Part shown: one piece after another, positions 3,702 through 54,077 of the stretch | Numbering within the stretch: position 1 is the stretch's first letter | Layout: the number at the start of each line of letters is the position of its first letter | NCBI GenBank assembly: GCA_009777475.1 | Contig: WRLU01000004.1 | Span: 8,582-72,581 of the forward strand | Source: Oscillospiraceae bacterium | GTDB taxonomy: Bacteria; Bacillota; Clostridia; Oscillospirales; UBA929 | Direction: 5' to 3' | Length of the DNA: 64,000 bases | Notes under the pieces: generated by a model | Told to the model about the DNA's origin: nothing | The model's database searches: none | What the model saw: only the letters and a program-made list of their open reading frames with translations | Program-made: the position numbers and the translations under genes

Positions 3702-4148
3702 TTATATCATATAGCTGTCCGAGTTTTCGATATTGTATTTGTCCAGTATATCCTGTAAGGTTATACCGTCCAGATAGTCGGCAATTACCTTGTACAGACC
3801 CTGCCATATCGGCAGGGTTTTGCAAAATCCCGCGCGATCACATAAGTTCGGCTCGTCCTTCAGGCAAGCTATCGGCACAAGGCTTCCCTCGGTAATCCGC
3901 AACACCTGACCGACAGTATACTCCGCCGGGGATTTTGCCAGCATATATCCTCCCTGATTTCCTCTGTTGGCACGCAGAATATTTGAAGTCTGAAGCAGGG
4001 AAACAATCTGTTCCAAATATTGCTTCGATATATCCTGCCTTTGGGCTATTTCTTTCAGAGAAACAAACCCATTATTTTTATTCTCGGCTAAATCCAGCAA
4101 CATTCGCAAAGCGTATCTGCCTTTTGTAGAGATTTTCAAATAAATCAC
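3702..4148 (-). CDS. Rrf2 family transcriptional regulator
   Basis: N-terminal (M)KISTKGRYALRMLLDLA winged-helix signature of Rrf2/IscR/CymR proteins, with Cys residues in the C-terminal half (ACL..C....C). Start is either GTG 4148 or TTG 4139. Confidence 0.85.
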   Translation of the reverse strand: MIYLKISTKGRYALRMLLDLAENKNNGFVSLKEIAQRQDISKQYLEQIVSLLQTSNILRANRGNQGGYMLAKSPAEYTVGQVLRITEGSLVPIACLKDEPNLCDRAGFCKTLPIWQGLYKVIADYLDGITLQDILDKYNIENSDSYMI

Positions 4149-4190: not shown

Positions 4191-5408
4191 CTAATACCGA
4201 TTATCAAACAACCGTGCCGACTTTTTTTCGCTCCTCGGCAGCTCTCCTATACCAACTGCCTTTGCGTTGGGGGTGATTCCGATTTTTTTCTTAAATTCTT
4301 GCCTGACTATTTTTTCTAGTGCAGTTTTTTCGTCTTGTTCGGTTTCAAAGAACAGCGTCAGCACATCCACTCCGTTTACATGGTCAATCATTATTTGATA
4401 CTCACTGCTTACACCGTTTACCGCAGACAAAACCTCATCTGCCCTTGCAGGGTAAATCATCGCCCCCCGGACCTTAACCATGTCGTCACTGCGTCCGATA
4501 ATAGAGGCAATCCGGGGATGGTCACGACCGCATTCGCATTTGCCGGGAATAATCCTTGTCAGGTCGTGTGTACGGTATCGGATTAGCGGCGCACCCTCCT
4601 TTTCCAGAGTGGTAATGACTAGCTCTCCTATCTCTCCCTGAGGCAGGAGCTTTCCGGTTTTGGTGTCTATAATTTCAAAATACATATAATCATCCCATAT
4701 ATGCATCGCATCTTGCTTTTGGCAATTTATAGAAATCCCTGGTCCATAAATCTCAGTTAACCCATATATGTCATACAACTCAACGCCTAGCTCCCGAGCA
4801 ATGCGGTCACGCATTTTTTCTCCCCAGCGTTCAGATCCGATAACCCCTTTTTTGAGATGAATTTTGCCACGCACACCGCGTTTTTCAATTTCCTCCGCCA
4901 ACAAAAGAGCATAAGAGGAGGTGGCGCACAAAACTGTAGACTTCATATCTATCATCATCTGAATCTGCCTGTCTGTGTTTCCCGGCCCCATTGGCACAGC
5001 CATAGCACCAAGAAGCTCACAGCCTGCCTGAAATCCTATACCCGCTGTCCACAGTCCATAGCCAGGTGTTATTTGTATACGATCCAAGCTTGTAACCCCC
5101 GCCGTTTCATAGCAGCGTTTGAACATAATTGCCCAATCATTCACATCCTTTTGGGTATAAGGGATAATAACAGGAGTCCCGGTGGTGCCGCTTGAGGAAT
5201 GGATACGCACAATTTTTTCGTCAGGTACAGCCTGAAGCCCCAACGGATATGCCATGCGTAAATCCTCCTTACCGGTAAATGGGAGGGATTCAAATTCTTG
5301 CATGGTCTGAATCCCGGCGGCATCAAGGCCGGCAAAGCGGACCTTATAGAACTCGCTGTTCTCGGCACGTTTTATGGCGTTTTTAATGGCACTAAGCTTG
5401 TCCTTCAT
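4191..5408 (-). CDS. phenylacetate-CoA ligase family protein (aryl-acetate--CoA ligase)
   Basis: Aligns along its length with PaaK (RIHSSSGTTGTPV AMP-binding motif, DIYGLTE, IRYRTHDLT, GRSDDMVKVRG). Its start overlaps the iorB stop by 17 nt. Confidence 0.85.
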   Translation of the reverse strand: MKDKLSAIKNAIKRAENSEFYKVRFAGLDAAGIQTMQEFESLPFTGKEDLRMAYPLGLQAVPDEKIVRIHSSSGTTGTPVIIPYTQKDVNDWAIMFKRCYETAGVTSLDRIQITPGYGLWTAGIGFQAGCELLGAMAVPMGPGNTDRQIQMMIDMKSTVLCATSSYALLLAEEIEKRGVRGKIHLKKGVIGSERWGEKMRDRIARELGVELYDIYGLTEIYGPGISINCQKQDAMHIWDDYMYFEIIDTKTGKLLPQGEIGELVITTLEKEGAPLIRYRTHDLTRIIPGKCECGRDHPRIASIIGRSDDMVKVRGAMIYPARADEVLSAVNGVSSEYQIMIDHVNGVDVLTLFFETEQDEKTALEKIVRQEFKKKIGITPNAKAVGIGELPRSEKKSARLFDNRY

Positions 5409-5964
5409 TGTACATCTCCCTGCCCAAGTTAAATGATTTTAGGTTTTCCTCTCTGAATTTCGGCATGGCCAATATAACCTCCAATAGTATTTCAGTACTA
5501 AACGGAAACAATCCGCACTGGGCCGCCGCACCTAAAAGGGCGGTGTTTAGTGTTTTAGCGCATTGTTCTTTAATCGGCTGACCCCTTACAATAATGACAT
5601 TTGAAGCATTGCTTTTGACGTATTTTAGCATATCGTCCGCATTATATGTCCCTGTGACGGGGTTTACGGCACTGTCACATACGACCAATGCTCCATTTCT
5701 GGACAGATATGTCAGTCGTCGCGCCGCCTCTGCCGGTTCAAAAGCGATGATGACATCCGCACTGCCCTTAGGTATTAGAGGAGAAAAAATTTCTTCCCCT
5801 ATGCGTACATGACCAAAAACGCAACCACCACGCTGTGCCATCCCTATGGTTTCGGTCGTCCGGGCACTAAAACCGCACTTCATAGCTGCTGTGGCAATCA
5901 GCTTTGACGCTAATACCGTACCTTGTCCCCCAACACCCGAAATTAGTAAGCTGAATGCTTTCAT
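5392..5964 (-). CDS. iorB: indolepyruvate ferredoxin oxidoreductase subunit beta
   Basis: MKAFSLLISGVGGQGT N-terminus typical of the IorB/2-oxoacid:ferredoxin oxidoreductase gamma-like family. ATG at 5964 sits 5 nt after the iorA stop and has a GGAGG RBS. Confidence 0.85.
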   Translation of the reverse strand: MKAFSLLISGVGGQGTVLASKLIATAAMKCGFSARTTETIGMAQRGGCVFGHVRIGEEIFSPLIPKGSADVIIAFEPAEAARRLTYLSRNGALVVCDSAVNPVTGTYNADDMLKYVKSNASNVIIVRGQPIKEQCAKTLNTALLGAAAQCGLFPFSTEILLEVILAMPKFREENLKSFNLGREMYNEGQA

Positions 5965-5969
5965 TTTTG

Positions 5970-7769
5970 CTAGCCTCCTTCGCACGTTATAGCACCAACT
6001 GGGCAAAATCGGGAACACAGCCCGCAGCTTGTGCATAAATCGGTATCAATAAACGCTTTACCCTCCCTGGCCAGCATGATAGCCGGGCAACCGAGCTTTT
6101 TCAAGCAAAGCTTACAACCTGTGCATAAATTTCCATCCACAGATGTTGTACCATTTGTTCCTTTTTGCAGGATTATGCAGGGAGACTCAAATAGGATCAC
6201 ACGAACCCCCTTTTGTCCGATAGAAGCATGGACAGCCTCCCTGGCCGCCGCCCGATCAAATGGGTCAACCCTATAGAGAGCCGAAACACCTATTGCCCTT
6301 ACAATTTTTTCGATACTTATTTTCTCCACCGTGCCGCCCATCATAGTAATACCCATTCCCGGATGGGGCTGATTGCCGGTCATGGCTGTAGTTGCGTTGT
6401 CTAGGATAACAACTACAATATCTGTTTGGTTGTATACTGCGTTAATTATTCCCGGAATGCCAGTATGAAAAAAAGTTGAGTCCCCTATAAAGGCAAAGTG
6501 CACCCTATCCGGCTCTGCTCTTTTTAAGCCCTGAGCCACAGTAATTCCTCCGCCCATACATAGGCAGGTATCAACCATGTCCAATGGCGGGACATTGCCC
6601 AAGGTATAGCAACCAATGTCTCCGGTAAATACAGCTGAAATGTTTCTTGCAGCCTCCTTTACCGCAAGAAACGAAGCCCTGTGCGGACACCCGGCACACA
6701 TCACCGGAGGCCGCACAGGCAGGGATGGGGGTTCGGGCAATAACTCTGTCTCAGATGCACGAGTGTTTTTGAGGAAAGCGGTTATATCGGCTGACACGCT
6801 GTCAACCGTATTTTCACCGGCATTTCCTATATGCCCGGTACGCTTACCCAAAATTTTTACATTCAAGCCGTGAATCCCGCACAACCGGATCAATTCATTC
6901 TCAATAACGGCATCAAGCTCTTCAACAACTAAAGCTTCCTCCAATCCGTCCAAAAACTCTAACGCTAGCTTATCAGGAAATGGGACTGTCGAAACCTTCA
7001 GCAGCTTTACCTGTCCGCCGTTATTTGACAGGTGTTCTTTAACATGCGCGTAGCTTACACCGCCGGATGCAATCCCCATTTTTCCTGCACCGGCAAGGGT
7101 GTTGTATTCATAGCCGGAAAATTCCCCGGATAAATCATCAAGTGTTTTCTCAATTGTGATTTTATTCCGGTAAGAGAGTGCCGGAAATATAACCCATTGT
7201 TCACTTTTAGTAAATCCAGCAGGCTCATTTCTAGATAAATTATCCAAAAGCTCTACTACCGCGCAACTGTGACAAATCCGGGTAGTTGGACGGAGAAGGA
7301 CTGGTCTTCCGATTTTTTCCGATAGATCAAAGGCATCAGCAATCATAATATATGCCTCTTCCGGAGTGGATGGGTCAAATAACGCCAGCTTGGAAAATTT
7401 GGCGAAATGACGTGTATCCTGCTCTGTTTGTGATGAAATAGGACCCGGATCATCGGCAACGACAACGACCATGCCCCCGAGAACACCCACATAATTGAGG
7501 CACATCAGAGGGTCTGACGCTACATTAAGACCCACCTGCTTCATGGTAACCATCGACCTCGCTCCGGCATAAGCCGCCCCGGCGGCAACCTCTAGCCCAA
7601 CCTTTTCGTTAACCGACCATTCAACATAAATGCCTCCGTCATTATGCTTTGCCACAGTTTCTAAGATTTCAGAGGAGGGTGTCCCGGGATAGCCGGCAAC
7701 GACATTTACTCCCGCCCGGATGGCACCCATTGCAATTGCCTCATTGCCCATCAGTAATTTTTTCATCAT
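5970..7769 (-). CDS. iorA: indolepyruvate ferredoxin oxidoreductase subunit alpha
   Basis: MMKKLLMGNEAIAMGA N-terminus, TPP-binding region (GDIGCYTLG, GDSTFFHTG) and two C-terminal 4Fe-4S ferredoxin motifs (CTGCKLC...C, CTSCGLC...C). An alternative start at 7787 forms TAATG with the ecfT stop. Confidence 0.9.
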   Translation of the reverse strand: MMKKLLMGNEAIAMGAIRAGVNVVAGYPGTPSSEILETVAKHNDGGIYVEWSVNEKVGLEVAAGAAYAGARSMVTMKQVGLNVASDPLMCLNYVGVLGGMVVVVADDPGPISSQTEQDTRHFAKFSKLALFDPSTPEEAYIMIADAFDLSEKIGRPVLLRPTTRICHSCAVVELLDNLSRNEPAGFTKSEQWVIFPALSYRNKITIEKTLDDLSGEFSGYEYNTLAGAGKMGIASGGVSYAHVKEHLSNNGGQVKLLKVSTVPFPDKLALEFLDGLEEALVVEELDAVIENELIRLCGIHGLNVKILGKRTGHIGNAGENTVDSVSADITAFLKNTRASETELLPEPPSLPVRPPVMCAGCPHRASFLAVKEAARNISAVFTGDIGCYTLGNVPPLDMVDTCLCMGGGITVAQGLKRAEPDRVHFAFIGDSTFFHTGIPGIINAVYNQTDIVVVILDNATTAMTGNQPHPGMGITMMGGTVEKISIEKIVRAIGVSALYRVDPFDRAAAREAVHASIGQKGVRVILFESPCIILQKGTNGTTSVDGNLCTGCKLCLKKLGCPAIMLAREGKAFIDTDLCTSCGLCSRFCPVGAITCEGG

Positions 7770-7786
7770 AAATATCACGTCCCCCA

Positions 7787-8554
7787 TTATATATACAATG
7801 TAATCCATATTCCTGCTGCATATCCGGCAAGCAATGCACCAAATACAACTGCGTCCCTTGCACCAAATTGAGTTTTACGGTAGCTAGAACGCTCCCCCGC
7901 TCCAAAGCCTCTTACTTCGAGGGAAATTGCCATTTGTTCGGTTTTTTTAACTGACGAAGATAAAAGCGGCACTGTCAGGGGGATCACACGCCCAAATTTC
8001 TTGATGGGTCCGCCTTTGTCAAGGTCACACCCACGAGCGGTCTGCGCTTTTATGATTTGCTCCATTTCTCCGGTGAGCATAGGTATAAACCTAAGCGTTG
8101 CGGTTACGGCGAAGGCGTATTTGTACGGAACATTTAGGTAGCGCACACATGCCGAAGCTAAATCATTGGCCGGTGTAAGCATGATCATTATGCTGATCGG
8201 AAGAAGTGCCCCAAGTGTCCTGAAAATCATCACAAGACCCTGAATGACCCCTTCCTGAGCAACTATAATAATGCCATAGGAAAAAAACACTGCCCCCTCT
8301 CGATTGAACAGCACCGCAAAAAACAACAGCATAATGCTTATTATGCCGAATAGTTTAAGTACCGACTTCCCTTCATGGGCTATTCCGCTTGTCAAAAGGA
8401 TAAGCAGGTTAATCGTTGTTATTCCGGCTAAAAACCATATGTTTTGGCATATAAAGCAAAGAACACAGGTTAAAACCGCCCATACAAGCTTTGTTATTGG
8501 ATGGAGCTTGTGGAAAAATGACTTGCCCGGCACATATTGAAGAATCGATTTCAC
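7787..8554 (-). CDS. ecfT: energy-coupling factor transporter transmembrane component EcfT (CbiQ family)
   Basis: Polytopic membrane protein with the CbiQ-type ARG coupling motif (KAQTARGCD, LEVRGF). Its start overlaps the ecfA2 stop by 4 nt. Confidence 0.85.
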   Translation of the reverse strand: MKSILQYVPGKSFFHKLHPITKLVWAVLTCVLCFICQNIWFLAGITTINLLILLTSGIAHEGKSVLKLFGIISIMLLFFAVLFNREGAVFFSYGIIIVAQEGVIQGLVMIFRTLGALLPISIMIMLTPANDLASACVRYLNVPYKYAFAVTATLRFIPMLTGEMEQIIKAQTARGCDLDKGGPIKKFGRVIPLTVPLLSSSVKKTEQMAISLEVRGFGAGERSSYRKTQFGARDAVVFGALLAGYAAGIWITLYI

Positions 8555-9369
8555 GTTTTCTCCCCCTTCATTTTTCCTTTTATGGCCTCGACCATGGTAT
8601 CCACATCATAGGCATCATCATACCCGCCCAGCGACAGTGCAAGCTCTATGATTTGCGGAGGCTTCAGCCCGGTACCCGCAAGCTTTTCTGCCTTACGCAA
8701 TACCTCTGTTGTCCTGCCGTCCTCTACTATCCTGCCGTCACACATCATTATGGTACGCTGGGCGTAGTCAAGAACTATCTCCATGTCGTGAGAAACCATC
8801 AGCACGGTTGTACCCTTTTTATTGGCTGCAGTTACTATGTCCATTATTTCAATACATTCCCTGTAATCCTGACCAGTAGTCGGCTCGTCCAGTACAAGCA
8901 CCTCCGGAGCTACGGCAAGCACGCCCGCCAATGCTGCACGCTGTCTCTCTCCCCGACTAAGGTTAAAGGGATGATCCTCCATCTTGCCTGATAAGCTTAA
9001 AAGCGCGGCGGTTTTTTCTGACCTGAGTTTTATTTCATCCTCCGGCATACCGATATTCCTCATGCCAAACTCAATTTCTTTGCCAACGGTCTGACAAAAT
9101 ATTTGATGGTCAGGATTTTGGAACAGATATCCTATATGCTTTGCCAATACGCTCACCGGTGTGTTTTTAGTGTCAATCCCGGCGACTGTCACCTTCCCTT
9201 TTGTGGGCTTTGCCAAACCATTTAACTGCCGGAGAAGGGTAGATTTCCCCGCGCCGTTTTGACCAATCACAGCAACCATTTCACCTTGATTTATAGTAAA
9301 ATTTATGCCCTTCAGAGTGTTTGGTGTTTTAGGGGAATAAGTATATTCCAAGCCTTCAACTACAATCAT
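8551..9369 (-). CDS. ecfA2: ECF transporter ATPase component EcfA2
   Basis: Walker A GQNGAGKST, signature LSRGERQR, Walker B LVLDEPT, and the C-terminal ECF-type helical extension. 4-nt overlaps on both sides. Confidence 0.85.
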   Translation of the reverse strand: MIVVEGLEYTYSPKTPNTLKGINFTINQGEMVAVIGQNGAGKSTLLRQLNGLAKPTKGKVTVAGIDTKNTPVSVLAKHIGYLFQNPDHQIFCQTVGKEIEFGMRNIGMPEDEIKLRSEKTAALLSLSGKMEDHPFNLSRGERQRAALAGVLAVAPEVLVLDEPTTGQDYRECIEIMDIVTAANKKGTTVLMVSHDMEIVLDYAQRTIMMCDGRIVEDGRTTEVLRKAEKLAGTGLKPPQIIELALSLGGYDDAYDVDTMVEAIKGKMKGEKT

Positions 9370-10208
9370 TTTTCAACAATCCCCCTCACCATTTTTTCCG
9401 CCTGAAGGACTGTCCGGGGATATCCCCCCTCATACAGCCCTTCTTTTTCCAGTTCGCGTGCAAGACTTACCACTCTGGGGCAGTTAATGCCCATCTCAAT
9501 AAGCCGCCCGCTTTGTTTAAGGGTTTCTGCCGTGGGCAGATCCGTTACAATTTGCCCATTAGCCAAGGTTATCATTCGGGAGCAGAACTGCGAAAGCAAC
9601 ATGATTTTTTGCTCGACTATAACTATAGTCATTTCGTATTCCCTGTTGAGCAAGGACAGGGTTTCAAAAATCAGCTGGCTCCCTAAGGGGTCAAGCTCAC
9701 TGGTCGGTTCATCGAGTACAAGTATCTCCGGACGCAATGCGATTGCTGACGCCACCGCAACACGCTGTTTTTGTCCGCCTGACAGCTGCGCCGTTGACTT
9801 TTTGCGGAGCTTGGAAATCCCTGAAAGCTCCAGTGCTTCGGTTACCCTCTTGTCAATTTCTTCTGAAGGGACATTAAAATTTTCAAGGCTGAAGGCTATC
9901 TCATCCTCAACAAACGAGGTAACAATCTGAGCCTCAGGATCCTGCAAAACCGTACCCACATGGCGGCTCAGCGCAACACAGCTGCTGTCTACCGTGTCAA
10001 GCCCTGCGACCGAGACGCTGCCGTAAAAATCACCGGGGTAATAATGAGGTACAATGCCGTTTATAGACATCATCAACGTGCTTTTACCTGCCCCTGATGC
10101 CCCGATAACCCCAACAAATTCACCTCTGTTTATCTGTACGTTGATGTTGTCTAGAGCAAGCTTACCAGAGCCTTCATATCCGAATGTGTAGTTGCTTATT
10201 TGAATCAT
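9366..10208 (-). CDS. ecfA1: ECF transporter ATPase component EcfA1
   Basis: Walker A GASGAGKST, signature LSGGQKQR, Walker B LVLDEPT. GGAGG RBS upstream of the ATG at 10208. Confidence 0.85.
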   Translation of the reverse strand: MIQISNYTFGYEGSGKLALDNINVQINRGEFVGVIGASGAGKSTLMMSINGIVPHYYPGDFYGSVSVAGLDTVDSSCVALSRHVGTVLQDPEAQIVTSFVEDEIAFSLENFNVPSEEIDKRVTEALELSGISKLRKKSTAQLSGGQKQRVAVASAIALRPEILVLDEPTSELDPLGSQLIFETLSLLNREYEMTIVIVEQKIMLLSQFCSRMITLANGQIVTDLPTAETLKQSGRLIEMGINCPRVVSLARELEKEGLYEGGYPRTVLQAEKMVRGIVEK

Positions 10209-10349
10209 ACGGCCAGACCTCCCCGGAAATTAGGCAACCCCTAACGGCTTGTTTTTGATGGATTGGTGAGTTTTTTTCAAAAAATCGGACGAATATTTTC
10301 CGTCAAGCCAGAAAAACAAGGTTTTTGGGGTTGCCTGAAGTGATTAGTA

Positions 10350-10943
10350 TTAGGGTGTCCTTTTTCTGATGACAGCCCTAAGCGCGGGATACAGGACAGA
10401 GACTATAATGGCGTTTGCGAGTGCAGTTCCAAATATTATGGCACTAAACCCAACTACAGTCATGCCTTCTGCTCTCTTCGGAAGATCCAGCCCGGAAAGA
10501 AGCATCATCTTCATTGCAAGAAAGAAGGCATACCCGCTGACAAGTGTTGTGAAGAATGTAAGAACCGCCGGATAAAATGGCACTTTTCCGATTTTCAATT
10601 CAAATGGCATTTTCATAAGAAGCACCAGTGCTACCGCGCCAAGGGTTTCACTGACTATATTGGCACCCGGCGCAAGAACGCCCGGCAGGAAGGTGCATAC
10701 AACACCCGCGACCAATCCGATTGCCAGCGATTCTAAGAATTTCGGACGTATTAGGAGGATTGCCAGGGAATACATGGCGATTACTGAGTTGGGTTTGAGC
10801 GGGGTAAAAGAGAATGCTACGTTAAATACTCCCTTCAATACCGCCCCTGCGGCGATTAGCATTGCTACAATAAGAATCTCGGTGACTGTGATGCCTGCCT
10901 TTTTGCTCGATGTGATTTCGCGTTTTTCCATACCTTGTGACAT
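10350..10943 (-). CDS. trpP: ECF transporter S component, TrpP (tryptophan transporter) family
   Basis: ATG at 10943 lies 9 nt after AAGGAG. The ORF-track start at 11099 would lie inside the T-box leader. The six-TM protein is alignable with B. subtilis TrpP/YhaG (..LKPNSVIAMYSLAILLIRP..IGLVAGVV..PGANIV.. versus ..MKPDMMLIMMFMGILLFPR..IGIVTGII..AGQIPNII..). Confidence 0.7.
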   Translation of the reverse strand: MSQGMEKREITSSKKAGITVTEILIVAMLIAAGAVLKGVFNVAFSFTPLKPNSVIAMYSLAILLIRPKFLESLAIGLVAGVVCTFLPGVLAPGANIVSETLGAVALVLLMKMPFELKIGKVPFYPAVLTFFTTLVSGYAFFLAMKMMLLSGLDLPKRAEGMTVVGFSAIIFGTALANAIIVSVLYPALRAVIRKRTP

Positions 10944-10994
10944 GATAAACTTCTCCTTTTTTCGGCTTTCGCCATAATATTTTTTGCAAAAACC

Positions 10995-11262
10995 AAAAAA
11001 CCCATCCACAGACATAACTGTCAAGGACGAGCGTGCACAACCCGTGGTACCACCTTGATTCACAGGGCGAAAGCCCTGCCTCACGCGGGATACAGACATA
11101 CCCCTTAGCCTTCACGCGGCTTAAACGTTGCAGAATACTCAGGAAATTTGAATCCCCTTTGACTGCACCCTCCACGGTCCATTTAATGTACTGCATACCA
11201 CGAGGCTCTCAGCCACCCCCGCTCTCTGTAGGCGCATCTTAACATTTTTATCTCCGCATCAT
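10995..11262 (-). promoter_or_regulatory. T-box riboswitch leader, candidate specifier UGG (tRNA-Trp)
   Basis: Read on the minus strand. AGAGAG box at 11233-11228. T-box motif tcaaGGTGGTACCACGGG at 11060-11041. Antiterminator 3' strand CTCGTCCTT. Terminator CTCGTCC/GGATGGG (extended by ACAG/CTGT), followed by U6 (11000-10995). UGG followed by A at 11181-11178 inside an A-rich loop. Confidence 0.8.
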
Positions 11263-11297
11263 CGGTTTGATGGACGAATATTTAATTTTGCTCCTTC

Positions 11298-11326
11298 AGC
11301 ATAGCACATGACTTGGTGTCCGTCAA
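11298..11326 (-). promoter_or_regulatory. SigA-type promoter of the T-box/trpP transcription unit
   Basis: Minus strand: TTGACG (11326-11321), 17-nt spacer, TGcTATGCT extended -10 (-10 hexamer at 11303-11298). Lies about 35 nt upstream of the T-box stem I region. Confidence 0.55.
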
Positions 11327-11358
11327 CCCCCTTTTTGAAATTTTTTTGAACCGAAGCT

Positions 11359-11386
11359 GAAGCTTCGATTGAGAAGCTTCGATTGA
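11359..11386. repeat. perfect 14-nt tandem duplication GAAGCTTCGATTGA x2, each unit containing the palindrome CGAAGCTTCG/GAAGCTTC
   Basis: Direct reading of 11351-11386 (ccgaagct gaagcttcgattga gaagcttcgattga). T-runs flank it on both sides. It sits between the divergent trpP and infC promoters. Confidence 0.9.
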
Positions 11387-11423
11387 TTTTTTAAACAGAG
11401 GAAAATAAAAAAATAAAAAAGGC

Positions 11424-11453
11424 TTGACAAGACCTTTTTGTTTGTGTTACACT
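11424..11453 (+). promoter_or_regulatory. SigA-type promoter of infC-rpmI-rplT
   Basis: TTGACA (11424-11429), 18-nt spacer, TGtTACACT extended -10 (11445-11453). Confidence 0.5.
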
Positions 11454-11625
11454 GGCTTACACAAAGAAGAAGGGACTCCCTCCCTCACCTTGTCTTTGTG
11501 CGAGGGCAAGGTTAATATCCATAACGGTCGGTGTTCGTCTGGGGTCAGACCTCCGGAATACCTAGCTTGCTGTTGTTGGTTAACCGGGCGGGGAGAATCT
11601 CCAGCTCGTTTTTTGTTTTCTGACT
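11454..11625 (+). promoter_or_regulatory. infC operon 5' leader with terminator-like hairpin (candidate L20-responsive attenuator)
   Basis: About 170-nt untranslated leader. Hairpin CGGGC..GGG/agaatc/TCC..GCTCG at 11585-11608 is followed by TTTTTTGTTTT (11609-11619), just ahead of the infC RBS. The position matches the Firmicute L20 leader. The structure was not verified against a covariance model. Confidence 0.45.
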
Positions 11626-11646
11626 TTGAATGGAGGTGCGTTACTC

Positions 11647-12165
11647 ATCGGCAAAATAGCTCATCAAATCAACGAAGAAATCCGGGACAAGGAGGTGCGT
11701 CTTATAGGGGACGATGGTGCCCAGCTTGGCATTGTAAAATCCTCTGATGCGCTCAGGGCGGCTTTTGAAAAGGACTTGGACCTAGTAAAAATTGCCCCCC
11801 AGGCTGCCCCTCCCGTATGCCGGATTATGGACTATGGGAAATTCCGCTTTGAGCAATCTAAAAGAGAAAAAGAGGCTCGTAAAAATCAGCATGTGGTTGC
11901 CGTCAAAGAAATCCGTTTGTCCTCTGGGATTGATGTGCATGACTTTGAGTTTAAGCTGCGCAATGCACAAAAGTTCCTCAAAGATGGTGATAAGGTAAAG
12001 GTTTCAGTGCGTTTTCACGGTCGTCAGCTTGTCCATGTTGGCCTGGGTGAAAAGCAGCTCCTGAAATTCGCTGAAAGCTGTGAAGAATTAGCCTCCATAG
12101 AAAAACCGCCCATTCTTGAGGGTCGCCGGATGTCAATGTTTTTGACTCCGAAACCAAATAAATAG
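11647..12165 (+). CDS. infC: translation initiation factor IF-3
   Basis: [23 protein letters not shown]... is a typical IF-3 sequence. The only RBS (GGAGGTG, 11632-11638) lies downstream of the ORF-track TTG (11626). The likely start is therefore a non-AUG codon, ATC 11647 (or ATA 11656), as is usual for infC. The exact start is uncertain. Confidence 0.85.
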
Positions 12166-13781: not shown

Positions 13782-15443
13782 CTAAGCTGTTTCCGTTTTA
13801 GACTCTGACTCAAGTCCTAACAGGGATATTGACTGCTCGCGCAACAGAAACTTTTGGATTTTTCCGCTTGCGGTAAGAGGGAATGAGTCGGTAAACAGCA
13901 CATGGCTCGGAACCTTATGCTTGGCTAAGCTTTTGTTGACATATCCCTTGATGTCATTTTCGTCAGCTTCTGCCCCATCCTTCAGTATGACAAAAGCGCA
14001 GGCCTCTTCGCCGTATCTTTTAGAAGGTATAGCAACAACGGCCACATCCTTTACGGCCTCATGGGTATATATGAAATCCTCTATTTCTTTTGGAAAGAGG
14101 TTTTCCCCGCCCCGGATAATCATATCTTTAATGCGTCCGGTTATTTTGTAGTAACCATCTGCATCAACGGTGGCAAGGTCGCCTGTATGCAGCCAGCCGT
14201 CGCTGTCTATCGCCGATTTTGTGGCTTCAGGCAACTTGTAGTAGCCCTTCATCACGTTATAGCCCCTTACACAAAACTCGCCGGCAACCCCAGAGGGAGC
14301 CTCCCTGCCTGTTTCAGGATCAATAATTTTTGTTTCCATAAACGGCAAAGTCTTTCCAACGGTGTGGACACGCTTTTCCAAACTGTCATCTACAGTCGTT
14401 TGAGTGCATACGGGCGAAGCTTCAGTCTGGCCGAAGGCTATAGTTATCTCCTTCATGTTCATTTTGTCAACAACATCCTGCATGACCTTGATTGGGCATG
14501 GCGAACCCGCCATAATACCGGTGCGAAGGGTTGAGTAGTCATACTTGCTAAAATCACGGTGTTCTAAAATCCCTATAAACATAGTAGGGACACCGTGTAC
14601 TGCCGTACACCTTTCGTACTCAACAACATGCATGACCTTCATTGGGGTATACCAAAGCAATGGGAGCATAGTGCTGCCGTGTGTTACGCAGGCCATAATT
14701 GCCAAAACCATTCCGAAGCAATGGAAGAACGGTACCGGTATACATAGACGGTCATTTTCAGTGAATTTCATGCAATCGCCGATGGAAAGCCCATTGTTCA
14801 CTATATTCTTATGGGTCAGCATAACACCCTTGGGGAAACCGGTGGTGCCGGATGTGTACTGCATATTTATAACATCATCGGGATCAAGGCTTGCTTTTCT
14901 TTTTTTGTATTCAGTTGAGGAAACAAGCACGCCGAAATTTTCAATATCGTTCCAGTGATACATTCCCTTGTAGTGATTATCAAAAGACACAACTATTTTA
15001 AGCTCCGGCAATTTATCTGACAACAACGCCCCTTTTTTGCAGTTTTTGAGTTCGGGGCAAATGGAGTAAAGTGCTTTTTCACAGTCTATATCCTTCAGTC
15101 CGTCACAGATAAACAGGGCTTTGCTGTCAGACTGCTTGAGCAAAAATTCCAGTTCCTGTTCCTTGTAGTTGGTGTTGACCGTTACTAAAACAACGCCTAT
15201 TTTTGCCGTGGCAAACATAAGAACCAGCCACTGCGGATAATTAGTCGCCCAAACTGCCGCATGGTCGCCCTTTTGAAGACCCATCCCCATAAGGCCCTTG
15301 GCAATGCGGTCAACTTTGTTGTTAAATTCATACCATGTCTTGTCAAACTCCATTTCAATGTACTTAACTGCCTGATGGGTAGGGAATTTTTGCGCGGTTT
15401 CCTCCAATGCCTCTCCGATAGTAATTTTTCTCGGTTCATTCAT
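13782..15443 (-). CDS. AMP-dependent acyl-CoA synthetase/ligase (FadD-like)
   Basis: AMP-binding motifs YTSGTTGFPKGV, GQTE, TGDLATVDADGYYKITGRIKD. Its start overlaps the MFS stop (ATGA). Confidence 0.85.
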   Translation of the reverse strand: MNEPRKITIGEALEETAQKFPTHQAVKYIEMEFDKTWYEFNNKVDRIAKGLMGMGLQKGDHAAVWATNYPQWLVLMFATAKIGVVLVTVNTNYKEQELEFLLKQSDSKALFICDGLKDIDCEKALYSICPELKNCKKGALLSDKLPELKIVVSFDNHYKGMYHWNDIENFGVLVSSTEYKKRKASLDPDDVINMQYTSGTTGFPKGVMLTHKNIVNNGLSIGDCMKFTENDRLCIPVPFFHCFGMVLAIMACVTHGSTMLPLLWYTPMKVMHVVEYERCTAVHGVPTMFIGILEHRDFSKYDYSTLRTGIMAGSPCPIKVMQDVVDKMNMKEITIAFGQTEASPVCTQTTVDDSLEKRVHTVGKTLPFMETKIIDPETGREAPSGVAGEFCVRGYNVMKGYYKLPEATKSAIDSDGWLHTGDLATVDADGYYKITGRIKDMIIRGGENLFPKEIEDFIYTHEAVKDVAVVAIPSKRYGEEACAFVILKDGAEADENDIKGYVNKSLAKHKVPSHVLFTDSFPLTASGKIQKFLLREQSISLLGLESESKTETA

Positions 15444-16753
15444 GATTGCACCTCCGAATTATTTTTCTGCCCGGCATTAGCCGCGGCACGTTCACGCTTG
15501 GACATTCCTTTTAAGATAAGCATCATAATAATCCCTGCACCGGCACAGCAGGATGCGATTACAAAAGCCGGAAACATCAGGCTTATGTCCTGGGCTTTGT
15601 CGGCAATATCCTTGTAATAGCCGCTGATTTGCGATGAAAGAATCGCTCCTGAGCCAAATCCCAAAAGTACAAAGCCATAGTTTGTCGCCATATGCTTTGC
15701 CCCAAACAGGTCGGCGGTCAGCGATGGGAATGTAGACAGCAGCCCTCCATAGAAGAAGCCTATGAACGCGATCAGGACAAAAATCCAAATTCCTGGCACA
15801 ACGGTAACAAACAGTGGCAGGACAGCTCCGCCGGACAGCAGTATTATGATGGTGTTTTTTCTCCCGATTCTATCGGAAATCACGCCCCAAATCAAGCGCC
15901 CGAGGGAATTAAACATGGAAACAGCCAAAACTCCCCAGTAGGCAATGTTATCAGCAAGCCCTTTGTCCAGAGCGATAGGCTTTGCAAAGCCTATCATCAT
16001 TAGTCCGCCCATACATGCCAGTATGAAGGTGACAACAATGAGATAAAATTTTGTGCTTTTTAGCATTTCAGAAGGGGTATACTCCATCACCGATTTTACC
16101 ATGCTTGATTTGGCTGATGAAGCAACGGCAGCGGAGGCAAATCCTTCGGGGGGATTTTTCATAAAAAGGCTTCCTATAGTGCATACGAACAGGAAAATTC
16201 CGCTGAGTATCAGGAAGGTTTTTTGCTCCCCTGTGCCGGTGCCGCCGAAAGTCTTGATCAACTTTTCTATTACAGGGGTAAACACCACACCGCCAAAGCC
16301 AAGTGCTGATACGATGATGCCTGTGACAAGCCCTTTTTTGTGAGGGTACCATTTCTGGGCACAGGCAATTGTTGTAGAATATGTAAAGCCCATGCCGACC
16401 CCTCCCATCAATCCGTATGTCACCCATAGTGACCATGAGGTATTTGCCGTTACAAAAGAGGCCAAGAAAAATCCGGCACTTAGTATGATGCCGCCGATGA
16501 AAACAACGAACCGGGTGGAATACTTAGCGGCGAGTTTGCCTCCGAATACGCTCCCAATAGTTAGCGTGGCGAGCAAGAGGGAAAAAGTGAGCTGGGCTTT
16601 GGCGTTGTCCTTGTCAAAGATGCTTTGCGCGATGCCGTTTTGGAATAAGCTCCAAAGGTAGGCAATGCCGAGGGTTAGCTGGATTGCGATTGCTGCGATG
16701 ACCGGGTAGATTCCTGTTTTTTTCGCGGGATAGCTTTTTGCTTGGGATTTCAT
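15440..16753 (-). CDS. MFS transporter (oxalate/formate antiporter-like family)
   Basis: 12-TM MFS profile. ATG at 16753 is preceded by AAGAGGAGG. The ORF-track start at 16798 lies inside the upstream hairpin. Confidence 0.8.
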   Translation of the reverse strand: MKSQAKSYPAKKTGIYPVIAAIAIQLTLGIAYLWSLFQNGIAQSIFDKDNAKAQLTFSLLLATLTIGSVFGGKLAAKYSTRFVVFIGGIILSAGFFLASFVTANTSWSLWVTYGLMGGVGMGFTYSTTIACAQKWYPHKKGLVTGIIVSALGFGGVVFTPVIEKLIKTFGGTGTGEQKTFLILSGIFLFVCTIGSLFMKNPPEGFASAAVASSAKSSMVKSVMEYTPSEMLKSTKFYLIVVTFILACMGGLMMIGFAKPIALDKGLADNIAYWGVLAVSMFNSLGRLIWGVISDRIGRKNTIIILLSGGAVLPLFVTVVPGIWIFVLIAFIGFFYGGLLSTFPSLTADLFGAKHMATNYGFVLLGFGSGAILSSQISGYYKDIADKAQDISLMFPAFVIASCCAGAGIIMMLILKGMSKRERAAANAGQKNNSEVQS

Positions 16754-16771
16754 GGGGTATTCCTCCTCTTT

Positions 16772-16819
16772 GGCAAAAGAAAAACACACCTGCCGCATCC
16801 TTACCGGTTGCTGCAGGTG
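16772..16819 (-). terminator. terminator-like hairpin between the sORF and the MFS gene (possible attenuator)
   Basis: Minus strand: CACCTGC (16819-16813), 19-nt loop, GCAGGTG (16793-16787), followed by TGTTTTTCTTTT. Lies about 20 nt upstream of the MFS RBS. Confidence 0.45.
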
Positions 16820-54001: not shown

Positions 54002-54077
54002 GCCGAAATAGCTCAGTTGGTAGAGCAGCTGATTTGTAATCAGCAGGTCGCCGGTTCGAGTCCGGCTTTCGGCTCCA
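54002..54077 (+). tRNA. tRNA-Thr (anticodon UGU), CCA encoded
   Basis: The 76-nt cloverleaf folds by hand: acceptor GCCGAAA/TTTCGGC, D arm GCTC/GAGC, anticodon stem GCTGA/TCAGC with loop TTTGTAA, T arm GCCGG/CCGGC with TTCGAGT, discriminator T, then CCA. Confidence 0.95.

Follow-up and report, generated by a model that had tools for sequence, protein, structure and literature searches.

Enzymes usually annotated as tryptophan-degrading sit here with a tryptophan-family importer under a tryptophan-starvation switch, which raises the question of whether they serve to break tryptophan down or to make it. The window, the whole 64,000-nucleotide stretch of Oscillospiraceae bacterium DNA that was analyzed, carries the locus on its minus strand, to which all coordinates below refer. 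Judged from its sequence and that of its relatives, the string T-box-trpP-ecfAAT-iorAB-ligase is probably a tryptophan-starvation operon with indoleacetate salvage.

The Trp-specific T-box leader (10995..11271) comprises stem I, the specifier, the T-box sequence, a terminator hairpin and a U6 tract. In a cmscan search it matched RF00230 at 11271-11020 over the full model (1-219) with 81.2 bits (E = 1.5e-17); this is below the Rfam gathering score of 93 bits, so that routine annotation misses the leader. The AGAGAG of stem I was read at 11227-11222, the UGG specifier at 11181-11179 with the A behind it at 11178, and the T-box sequence GGTGGTACCACGGG at 11054-11041. The terminator hairpin spans 11032-11000 and runs into TTTTTT at 11000-10995; its folding energy is −15 kcal/mol (z = −3.7), and none of 200 shuffles was equally stable. 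The specifier column was UGG in all 42 leaders compared (30/30 homologous leaders and 12/12 iorA-linked or L152 leaders), whereas an unrelated T-box, that of L113, departs from UGG at this column. The Trp-type T-box with UGG-A proposed in the sequence-only reading is thereby confirmed. A consensus scan (9/12 matches) placed a sigma-70-like promoter at 11298..11326, with TTGACG, a 17-nt spacer, TATGCT and an upstream TG; the T-box model begins about 27 nt further downstream.

The first gene, trpP (10350..10943), starts at ATG 10943 behind the SD sequence AAAGGAG and encodes a divergent S component of the TrpP clade. This 197-aa membrane protein had no direct match in Pfam, NCBIfam or PDB, and its assignment to the TrpP family comes only through homologues: 110 were found, most of them carrying PF17099 (TrpP), a model matched by 15 of 20 aligned relatives. 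The genes that follow encode ECF ATPase 1 (ecfA1, 9366..10208, 280 aa; top match TIGR04520 with 238 bits, and PF00005), ECF ATPase 2 (ecfA2, 8551..9369, 272 aa; top match TIGR04521 with 257 bits) and the transmembrane T component (ecfT, 7787..8554, 255 aa, GTG start; PF02361 CbiQ, E = 8.6e-35). ECF transporters were reportedly divided by Rodionov and colleagues in 2009 into group I, with a dedicated energizing module, and group II, with a shared one. The window has the group I layout, in which the genes for A1, A2 and T lie next to that for the S component. Such a dedicated module had been called unusual for TrpP, which is wrong for this clade: ecfA1-A2-T adjoins the S gene at almost every one of the 80 loci compared, whereas TrpP of B. 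subtilis belongs to group II and uses the shared module.

Downstream lies iorA (5970..7769, 599 aa from ATG 7769), encoding the alpha subunit of indolepyruvate:ferredoxin oxidoreductase (IOR) with TPP and two [4Fe-4S] domains; it matched TIGR03336 with 724.9 bits, above the cutoff of 650.9. The beta subunit gene iorB (5392..5964, 190 aa) matched PF01558 (E = 4.5e-29), and its scores against the IOR-beta NCBIfam models (137-157 bits) were below their cutoffs. The last enzyme is a PaaK-like AMP-forming aryl-acetate-CoA ligase (4191..5408, 405 aa; PF00501 and PF14535). It scored about 370 bits against PaaK models, below the equivalog cutoff of 646, and its nearest PDB entry was the phenylacetate-CoA ligase 4R1L/4RVN (E = 3.6e-103). 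The operon itself lacks an aminotransferase gene. An Rrf2-family regulator gene (3702..4148, likely start TTG 4139; PF02082, E = 3.4e-37) follows, and no terminator-like structure was seen between it and the ligase (4191 to 4148). It may be an eighth co-transcribed gene; in related loci no rrf2 was found after the ligase.

The junctions from ecfA1 to the ligase measure −4, −4, 17, 5 and −17 nt, which bears out the earlier claim that each is an overlap or at most 17 nt. The ecfA1/ecfA2 overlap is ATGA and that of ecfA2/ecfT is GTGA, with the GTG of ecfT on the ecfA2 stop. The TAATG reported at ecfT/iorA is present, giving an in-frame start at 7789 (another lies at 7808), but ATG 7769, with a GGGGGA SD sequence, is the likelier iorA start and leaves a 17-nt gap. 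The iorA and iorB genes are 5 nt apart, with the SD sequence GAAGGAGG before iorB at 5964; an alternative iorB start at 6036 was set aside in favor of this one. The iorB/ligase overlap is 17 nt. The additional claim that no room is left for internal promoters was overstated, because promoters can lie within coding sequence; the gene string held 17 promoter-like matches against 11.9 ± 3.2 expected, i.e., a chance level.

The linkage suspected from the window recurs in relatives. All seven genes, trpP-ecfAAT-iorA-iorB-ligase, occur together in 16 other genomes from several Bacillota lineages, headed by a UGG T-box in 10 and by an attenuator of the TRAP type, with (G/U)AG repeats, in 6 (L005, L008, L022, L024, L033 and L045). 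Rfam and nhmmer searches revealed a UGG T-box directly before iorA-iorB-ligase, with no transporter, in 11 further genomes (Rfam E from 2e-12 to 4e-23). Other arrangements are T-box-MFS-iorAB-ligase in L136 and T-box-trpP-ecfAAT-ligase in L152. Carriers available in culture include Solibaculum intestinale CLA-JM-H44, Parasporobacterium paucivorans DSM 15970 and Thermoclostridium caenicola DSM 19027. Identity of the window's leader is 75% with the leader of L136 and with those of L081 and L083, the last two lying directly before iorA, and is at most 61% with all other trpP leaders except that of its sister L001. This pattern suggests that in the window's lineage the T-box travels with iorAB-ligase while the transporter slot varies. 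At about 65 of the 80 loci selected by iorA no Trp sensor was seen, so the link is a subfamily trait and not a general one. In the six TRAP-type loci the place of the T-box before trpP is taken by 7-9 (G/T)AG triplets with a terminator behind them, and the repeats match the published TRAP site definition (PMC3064811). In L106, L107 and L108, GAG runs extend across the ligase start codon. The mtrB gene was present in three assemblies with TRAP-type leaders or ligase-start GAG runs (L059, L041 and L108), and none from the six full-string TRAP-type assemblies was among the matches listed (about 600 rows for 80 loci).

Among the ligases themselves, all 33 Trp-regulated copies fell into one of two major ligase clades, against 0 of about 31 in the other, and the window's ligase groups with the former. 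Because the linkage recurs under both T-box and TRAP-type sensors, iorAB and the AMP-forming ligase of this subfamily are assigned to Trp-starvation regulons, a placement that speaks for anabolic operation. The same link under two different Trp sensors makes it most likely that the enzymes run in reverse, from indoleacetate through indoleacetyl-CoA and indolepyruvate to Trp. The ligase type favors CoA-ester synthesis, and together with induction by Trp starvation it fits that direction. In the proposed mechanism, uncharged tRNA-Trp would bind the leader by pairing at both its UGG specifier and its UGGU bulge, stabilizing the antiterminator over the terminator, so that RNA polymerase would read on through trpP, the apparently terminator-less trpP-ecfA1 spacer and ecfA1-ecfA2-ecfT-iorA-iorB-ligase, coupled by their tight junctions, and perhaps through the Rrf2 gene. 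The products would offer two routes to Trp, a TrpP-type ECF importer and a two-enzyme salvage branch. In the latter, the ligase would convert indole-3-acetate to indoleacetyl-CoA, IorAB would carboxylate this reductively with reduced ferredoxin and CO2 to indole-3-pyruvate, and an unlinked aminotransferase would yield tryptophan.

Readthrough hinges on the 141-nt spacer between trpP and ecfA1 (10209..10349), the sole real gap in the string. It contains a long imperfect inverted repeat, unique in the window (arms 10336-10327 and 10241-10232), inside which a terminator scan flagged a weak hairpin with T6 on its 3' side (10304-10280). The T-box might accordingly govern trpP alone, the transcript ending or being processed in the spacer, with ecfA1 to the ligase expressed from an unrecognized promoter and IorAB-ligase catabolic or housekeeping. 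The fold of the whole spacer (−37.9 kcal/mol, z = −2.2) speaks for this, as does a structured 153-nt spacer, unrelated in sequence, at the same position in the closest relative, L001. However, the inner hairpin (−5.2 kcal/mol, z = −0.6) is no better than shuffles, the large stem lacks a U-tract, and the consensus scan found no promoter-like site in the spacer, which is thus predicted to hold a large hairpin and no convincing terminator. Moreover, an S component would be useless without its ECF module, the gap in the other full-string loci is at most 27 nt or an overlap, except in L036 (317 nt), and the same T-box lineage drives iorA directly in L081 and L083. We consider control of trpP alone distinctly unlikely; because the spacer folds strongly and contains the flagged hairpin and T6, partial termination or RNA processing may occur there.

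Given readthrough, the enzymes might still not be indole-specific and might salvage all three aromatic amino acids, or use aryl-acetyl-CoA otherwise, with Trp, the scarcest, as the regulatory proxy. The aryl acetates concerned are phenylacetate, 4-hydroxyphenylacetate and indoleacetate. Characterized IORs take indolepyruvate, phenylpyruvate and hydroxyphenylpyruvate (IOR cluster, PMC13285125), the nearest solved relatives of the ligase are phenylacetate-CoA ligases, and the aryl-acid pathway of M. maripaludis supplies all aromatic amino acids (PMC4162585). On the other hand, every T-box found on iorAB-ligase was UGG, with no Phe or Tyr codon; the second sensor, TRAP, is likewise Trp-specific; Trp-regulated ligases gather in one clade; and Trp specificity accords with co-transcription alongside a TrpP-family transporter. 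Such breadth is in our view unlikely. Oxidative running even under Trp starvation, clearing imported or endogenous indolepyruvate or making reduced ferredoxin while the sensors reflect a role other than synthesis, appears very improbable. IOR was first found as a catabolic enzyme, its reaction is reversible, and the B. thetaiotaomicron enzyme contributes to phenylacetate formation (cited in PMC13285125), but destroying the Trp skeleton while tRNA-Trp is uncharged would be counter-adaptive, an AMP-forming ligase running hydrolytically would waste the energy of the thioester, and the clusters known to be catabolic have Pta/kinase or ADP-forming ligases instead. Two independent Trp-limitation sensors converging on iorAB-ligase also oppose it.

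No published description of the link between Trp sensors and iorAB-ligase was found in the literature, and parts of the system have known counterparts. Trp T-boxes of Firmicutes include those of B. subtilis rtpA-ycbK and C. difficile trpP (PMC7438776). The window's leader resembles these in its stem I UGG, the bulge pairing with the tRNA 3' end and the competing terminator, and a trpP-family gene is likewise the first cargo; unlike in those examples, the cargo adds a dedicated ECF module, iorAB and an aryl-acetate-CoA ligase, and the relatives' T-box drives iorAB-ligase directly. Allison reportedly observed that rumen bacteria reductively carboxylate phenylacetate and indoleacetate. In Methanococcus maripaludis the aryl-acid/IOR route is established, the IOR there being MMP0713/0714 (Porat et al., as cited by PMC4162585). 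The chemistry proposed here is the same, from aryl acetate through aryl-acetyl-CoA and, by IOR, arylpyruvate to the amino acid, whereas the window's putative system is bacterial, placed on Trp-specific sensors and physically coupled to a transporter.

The B. subtilis TRAP regulon comprises trpEDCFBA, trpG, trpP and ycbK (PMC3064811, PMC1474065). Repeats and a terminator before trpP are shared by the relatives, and the ligase-start GAG runs of L106-L108 resemble its translational targets. In contrast, the window uses a T-box, the relatives' putative TRAP sites have fewer than the canonical 11 repeats, and iorAB and the ligase are not among known TRAP targets. In Bacteroides, the same pair of IOR (alpha and beta) and a PaaK-like ligase occurs; the IOR-linked ligase was shown to be an AMP-forming arylacetate-CoA ligase, and the anabolic direction was proposed on biochemical grounds (PMC13285125, 2026). 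That paper offers no regulatory evidence, which two Trp-starvation sensors supply here, and the present carriers differ in being Bacillota with a transporter in the operon. Catabolic clusters for aromatic 2-oxoacids, such as CD2382 (aminotransferase)-iorAB-butK of C. difficile under SigL/sigma-54 (PMC7438776) and HpdDEFG-HpdJ-HpdK of C. scatologenes (PMC13285125), likewise use an IOR/OFOR-family oxidoreductase on arylpyruvates. These combine an aminotransferase with an ATP-conserving phosphotransacylase/kinase under sigma-54 or substrate control, whereas the window combines an AMP-forming ligase with predicted induction by lack of tryptophan.

The covariance-model scan proposed in the sequence-only reading, run with RF00230 in permissive Rfam mode over positions 10000-11800, returned a full-length T-box on the minus strand at 11271-11020 (model positions 1-219 of 219, 81.2 bits, E = 1.5e-17). 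This score is below the Rfam gathering threshold of 93 bits, and the element was visible only in the E-value mode of the scan; in gathering mode, a scan of the whole window reported only a tRNA and no T-box. Homologous leaders scored from 43 to 109 bits. The case shows that T-boxes under the gathering threshold can conceal regulon members.

Every T-box element named in that reading was located. Raw sequence and covariance-model alignment agreed in placing the AGAGAG box at 11227-11222, the specifier loop AAAUGGA at 11184-11178, with UGG at 11181-11179 followed by the purine A at 11178, and the T-box sequence GGUGGUACCACGGG / GGTGGTACCACGGG at 11054-11041 (all minus strand). The terminator hairpin (11032-11000, minus strand; −15 kcal/mol, z = −3.7, a stability reached by 0 of 200 shuffles) is followed by U6 and overlaps an antiterminator fold with a 7-nt bulge (−10.6 kcal/mol). 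A promoter scan identified the promoter-like site TTGACG-17-TATGCT at 11326-11298 (minus strand). The minimum free energy fold of the whole leader was uninformative as T-box evidence (z = −1.15), in line with a switch that has alternative conformers. The UGG specifier column was invariant in 30 of 30 aligned trpP leaders and in 12 of 12 leaders linked to iorA or found in locus L152, while a non-Trp control, the second and unrelated T-box in locus L113, differed at this column. These elements support a predicted transcription-attenuation switch. Uncharged tRNA-Trp would open it, and expression of the translationally coupled gene string would follow.

The string on the minus strand comprises a gene for a 197-aa membrane protein without direct family match (trpP, 10943-10350), the ECF ATPase genes ecfA1 (10208-9366) and ecfA2 (9369-8551), ecfT for the T component (8554-7787), iorA (7769-5970), iorB (5964-5392) and a PaaK-like AMP-forming ligase gene (5408-4191). 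The tight junctions described from the sequence were confirmed: an ATGA overlap, a GTGA overlap, TAATG at ecfT/iorA and a 17-nt overlap of iorB and the ligase gene. The likelier iorA start lies 17 nt downstream, behind GGGGGA, rather than at TAATG. The iorA/iorB gap is 5 nt, and the junctions indicate that iorA, iorB and the ligase gene are translationally coupled.

The iorA product exceeded the TIGR03336 cutoff (724.9 versus 650.9 bits) and contains TPP and ferredoxin domains (matches to PF02775, PF01855 and Fer4 domains). The iorB product matched PF01558; its best IOR-beta models scored 137-157 bits against cutoffs of 206-284, and it is therefore best described as an IOR-beta-like subunit. 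The ligase scored 370-376 bits with the PaaK equivalogs TIGR02155 and NF041878, below their cutoffs of 646-700. Its closest structure was PDB 4R1L (E = 3.6e-103), and it is classed as a PaaK-like AMP-forming ligase. No aminotransferase gene is present in the window operon. A gene for an Rrf2-family regulator (CymR/IscR-like; PF02082; 4148-3702, minus strand) begins approximately 45-50 nt past the ligase stop. No terminator was found between them, and the regulator may be co-transcribed with the operon; an Rrf2 gene follows the ligase in none of the related loci.

The only real gap in the string is the 141-nt trpP-ecfA1 spacer (10209-10349, minus strand). Its inverted arms, imperfect and 25 nt long, fold into a long hairpin (−37.9 kcal/mol, z = −2.2), and no U-tract follows this hairpin. 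An enclosed 6-bp hairpin followed by T6 was flagged as terminator-like by the scan, yet its stability was at shuffle level (−5.2 kcal/mol, z = −0.6). The promoter scan found no promoter-like site in the gap. The arms are unique within the window, and a repeated element was rejected as the origin of the spacer. The nearest relative, a termite-gut Oscillospiraceae MAG (L001; L-handles denote related genome loci fetched for comparison, with coordinates local to each locus), has a 153-nt structured spacer at the same position (L001:10601-10753), also with long inverted repeats and of unrelated sequence. Most other loci have trpP and ecfA1 overlapping or separated by no more than 27 nt. Differential mRNA stability, mRNA processing or partial attenuation are possible roles of the spacer.

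infC (11626-12165, plus strand) is oriented divergently to the operon. Just upstream of infC, a weak L20-leader-like Rfam match was observed at 11458-11621 (plus strand; 21 bits, E = 0.3), at the site expected for the infC-rpmI-rplT leader. Past the Rrf2 gene lie convergent genes for oligopeptide-type ABC ATPases. Upstream of the T-box promoter, at a distance of approximately 2.5 kb (13782-16798, minus strand), a gene for a 452-aa MFS protein is directly upstream of one for an AMP-binding acyl-CoA synthetase of 553 aa; an MBL-fold hydrolase gene comes next. This is a second pair of the "acid uptake plus activation" kind, and its MFS protein is 35% identical to MFS proteins linked to iorA in related loci. 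The sole tRNA in the window is a tRNA-Thr (anticodon TGT; 54002-54077, plus strand). The presence of Spo0A_C and Germane genes indicates a spore-forming member of Bacillota.

The window membrane protein had no Pfam, NCBIfam or PDB match, and PF17099 (TrpP) was not detected even at E ≤ 10. However, PF17099 is present in most of its 110 homologues and is matched by 15 of 20 relatives in an alignment (37-68% identity; best E = 1.1e-13), so the protein is probably a divergent member of the TrpP clade. Among 80 genome loci fetched with the TrpP alignment, from Bacillota, Treponema, Synergistaceae, Eggerthellaceae and Oligosphaera, the order trpP-ecfA1-ecfA2-ecfT was nearly universal. The window has the same group I ECF layout, in which the S component gene adjoins dedicated genes for A1, A2 and T. 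A dedicated ECF module, regarded as unusual in the sequence-only reading, is thus the norm for this clade. The question raised there of whether the linkage recurs was answered positively: in 16 of the 80 loci the string runs on through iorA-iorB-ligase in precisely the window order. Where a trpP locus lacks iorAB, no conserved or tightly coupled ORF was found behind ecfT. A homologous T-box precedes trpP in 40 of the 80 loci, and the specifier AUGG is invariant in the alignment of 30 of these 40 leaders. One locus carries a 157-nt insertion between ecfA1 and ecfA2 (L062:11389-11545) with two copies of the direct repeat AGAAAGAGGAATAGAAAAGGTAACAGAAA; the insertion is missing from the near-identical locus L058.

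A second set of 80 loci, fetched with the IorA alignment, consisted almost entirely of iorA-iorB-ligase triplets without trpP or ecf genes. Taken over 96 loci, iorA-iorB and the ligase gene are linked in most (16 of 16 full strings and approximately 70 of 80 iorA-selected loci). In 11 loci a T-box lies directly upstream of iorA (L081, L083, L086, L091, L111, L112, L113, L114, L115, L124 and L134). It was detected by nhmmer in all 11 (E from 3.5e-15 to 1e-44) and by Rfam in each of the six to which it was applied (L081, L083, L086, L111, L113 and L134; E from 2e-12 to 4e-23), and the specifier is UGG in 11 of 11. L081 and L112 each have an ORF of approximately 395 aa behind the ligase gene; these two were set aside, being mutually unrelated and one of them probably spurious.

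Four loci carry an MFS gene at most 15 nt upstream of iorA (L082:619-1809, L084:4116-5306, L085:284-1606 and L136:2976-4151). These MFS proteins are orthologous (60-68% identity between copies) and are candidate aryl-acetate importers. The order in L136 is UGG T-box, MFS, iorA-iorB-ligase, and it recurs in L085 with a decayed T-box in front. In the latter locus, from Anaerobacterium chartisolvens DSM 27016, what is left of stem I, its 5' base, directly adjoins the T-box sequence and terminator (L085:~265-400); this genome encodes mtrB, the TRAP gene (L262). In L088 (~5340-5400), only a terminator-like hairpin similar to that of the window is left after the promoter. Both elements look like T-box remnants. 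In L152, a T-box-trpP-ecfA1-A2-T-ligase string has iorAB 3 kb upstream. The split order over L152:7965-17693 is iorA-iorB, a 136-aa ORF, secD/secF and then the UGG T-box-trpP-ecfA1-A2-T-ligase string, so that the ligase, not iorAB, travels with the transporter.

Six full-string loci lack a T-box (L005, L008, L022, L024, L033 and L045), and no known Rfam element was found in their leaders. Each has a good promoter, 7-9 (G/T)AG triplets with 2-nt spacers, then a GC hairpin with a T-run, then trpP. The triplet chains lie at L005:9847-9894, L008:3792-3837, L022:9835-9881, L024:9850-9886, L033:9848-9885 and L045:9839-9885, and further trpP leaders of this type were found in L004, L010, L027, L041, L043, L059 and L067. 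Overall, 6-10 triplets with 2-3-nt spacers precede a terminator where the T-box would sit. TRAP binding sites are defined by (G/U)AG repeats, 11 in B. subtilis (PMC3064811); the chains fit this definition, and we therefore read these leaders as a putative second Trp sensor. Chains of at least 6 triplets were present upstream of trpP in 14 loci (7-10 triplets in 12, 6 in two). In the background, such chains occurred 40 times in approximately 12,300 windows, mostly at the same TRAP-type leaders. A GAG/TAG chain in L087 lies within a Glu-rich coding sequence and was rejected as a false positive, and pre-ligase chains in L022 and L033, irregular and mixed with the Shine-Dalgarno sequence, were treated as weak.

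No mtrB gene was found within the fetched locus flanks. A search for MtrB homologues was filled by Bacillaceae, and clostridial MtrB from a cluster look-up was then used for targeted scans. These revealed mtrB in many Clostridia, so TRAP is not confined to Bacilli. Among the matches listed were OH_SFB_193 (L059), OH_PBB_227 (L041/L106) and OH_PDB_205 (L108), assemblies with GAG/TAG leaders or GAG runs at the ligase start. Among the matches listed, none came from the six full-string assemblies with TRAP-type leaders. Such runs, of 5-6 evenly spaced GAGs over the ligase Shine-Dalgarno sequence and start codon, occur at L106:~4368-4395, L107:8747-8789 and L108:10545-10587, with a promoter-like site of its own for the ligase gene; the assemblies that contain L106 and L108 encode mtrB. 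Their resemblance to TRAP translational targets is suggestive only. In L042 (9967-10011) and L056 (9968-10000), a UGG T-box is accompanied by a GAG/TAG run over the trpP ribosome-binding site, which suggests dual control of trpP, transcriptional through the T-box and translational through TRAP.

The T-box might be thought to serve trpP alone. The window leader shares 75% identity with those of L081 and L083, where the T-box is directly on iorA, and with those of L136 and sister L001; with all other trpP leaders it shares at most 61%. In a neighbour-joining tree of the ligases, built without support values, the window sequence groups with L082, L001 and L113, and the neighbouring sister cluster comprises L081, L083, L085 and L088. 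All 33 Trp-regulated ligases fall in one of the two major clades of this tree, and the other clade, with approximately 31 rumen-type sequences, contains none. Rfam found no known RNA element at four unregulated members of the Trp-linked clade. In the window lineage, the conserved unit is then the Trp T-box plus iorAB-ligase, with a slot between them that is empty or holds MFS or TrpP-ECF, and this argues strongly against a T-box dedicated to trpP.

Trp-sensor cis-elements, either UGG T-boxes or TRAP-type leaders, were counted at 17 full strings, 11 operons with iorA directly behind the leader and one MFS-iorA operon. At the level of cis-elements, these place iorAB and the ligase in putative Trp-limitation regulons of approximately 30 genomes under two unrelated sensors, and we classified the window string as a Trp-regulated salvage operon. 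We infer the anabolic direction, from indoleacetate to tryptophan, since induction by Trp starvation marks supply genes and not degradation genes, since an AMP-forming ligase favours thioester formation, and since M. maripaludis is described as making aromatic amino acids by an aryl-acid/IOR route. What the transporter carries is a separate matter. The Trp-sensor leaders point to tryptophan as the substrate of the window S component, and a precursor could be carried instead. It seems rather unlikely, though worth stating, that the TrpP-clade S component and the MFS replacing it (L082, L084, L085, L136) import indole-3-acetate or indolepyruvate and not tryptophan. If they did, the operon would be a self-contained uptake-activation-carboxylation module turning indoleacetate into tryptophan, and part of the family annotated "tryptophan transporter TrpP" would be aryl-acid transporters.

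T-boxes, TRAP, IOR, PaaK-like ligases and the aryl-acid pathway are each already known. Our literature search on T-boxes with indolepyruvate or iorA, whose scope did not extend to Vitreschak et al. 2008 or RegPrecise, found no description of Trp-specific T-boxes or TRAP-type leaders controlling iorAB-ligase, whether or not a transporter is coupled to it. In anaerobes of the gut, rumen and digesters, IOR genes are as a rule interpreted as tryptophan-degrading and as a source of indoleacetate and host-active indoles. To our knowledge, the bacterial genes for the reductive carboxylation of indoleacetate to tryptophan, reported in the 1960s, were never pinned down. The repeated occurrence of T-box and TRAP on iorAB plus an AMP-forming ligase provides gene-level directional evidence for an anabolic subfamily, and metagenomic "Trp catabolism" potential would need different scoring. 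Indoleacetate (auxin) is a ubiquitous fermentation and plant product, and some anaerobes are predicted to consume it to meet their tryptophan needs. Cultured strains and specific loci were identified as direct test cases: Solibaculum intestinale CLA-JM-H44 and Parasporobacterium paucivorans DSM 15970 have the T-box immediately before iorA, Thermoclostridium caenicola DSM 19027 has a full string with a TRAP-type leader, and Clostridium sp. MCC353 has one with a T-box.

Catabolic arylpyruvate clusters, unlike the window, combine the oxidoreductase either with an aminotransferase and a kinase or with ADP-forming ligases, under other regulators. In C. difficile, CD2382-iorAB-butK is SigL-dependent, and trpP separately has a T-box (PMC7438776). 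For an IOR-linked homologue in Bacteroides, arylacetate-CoA ligase activity was demonstrated and an anabolic role proposed (PMC13285125). Phenylacetate is a precursor of Phe in rumen cultures (PMC7356843), and M. maripaludis has an aryl-acid/IOR route to aromatic amino acids, as stated in a passage of PMC4162585 that cites Porat et al. The window has the gene arrangement expected for aryl-acid salvage of the methanogen and rumen type, with an aryl-acetate-activating ligase and an IOR encoded together.
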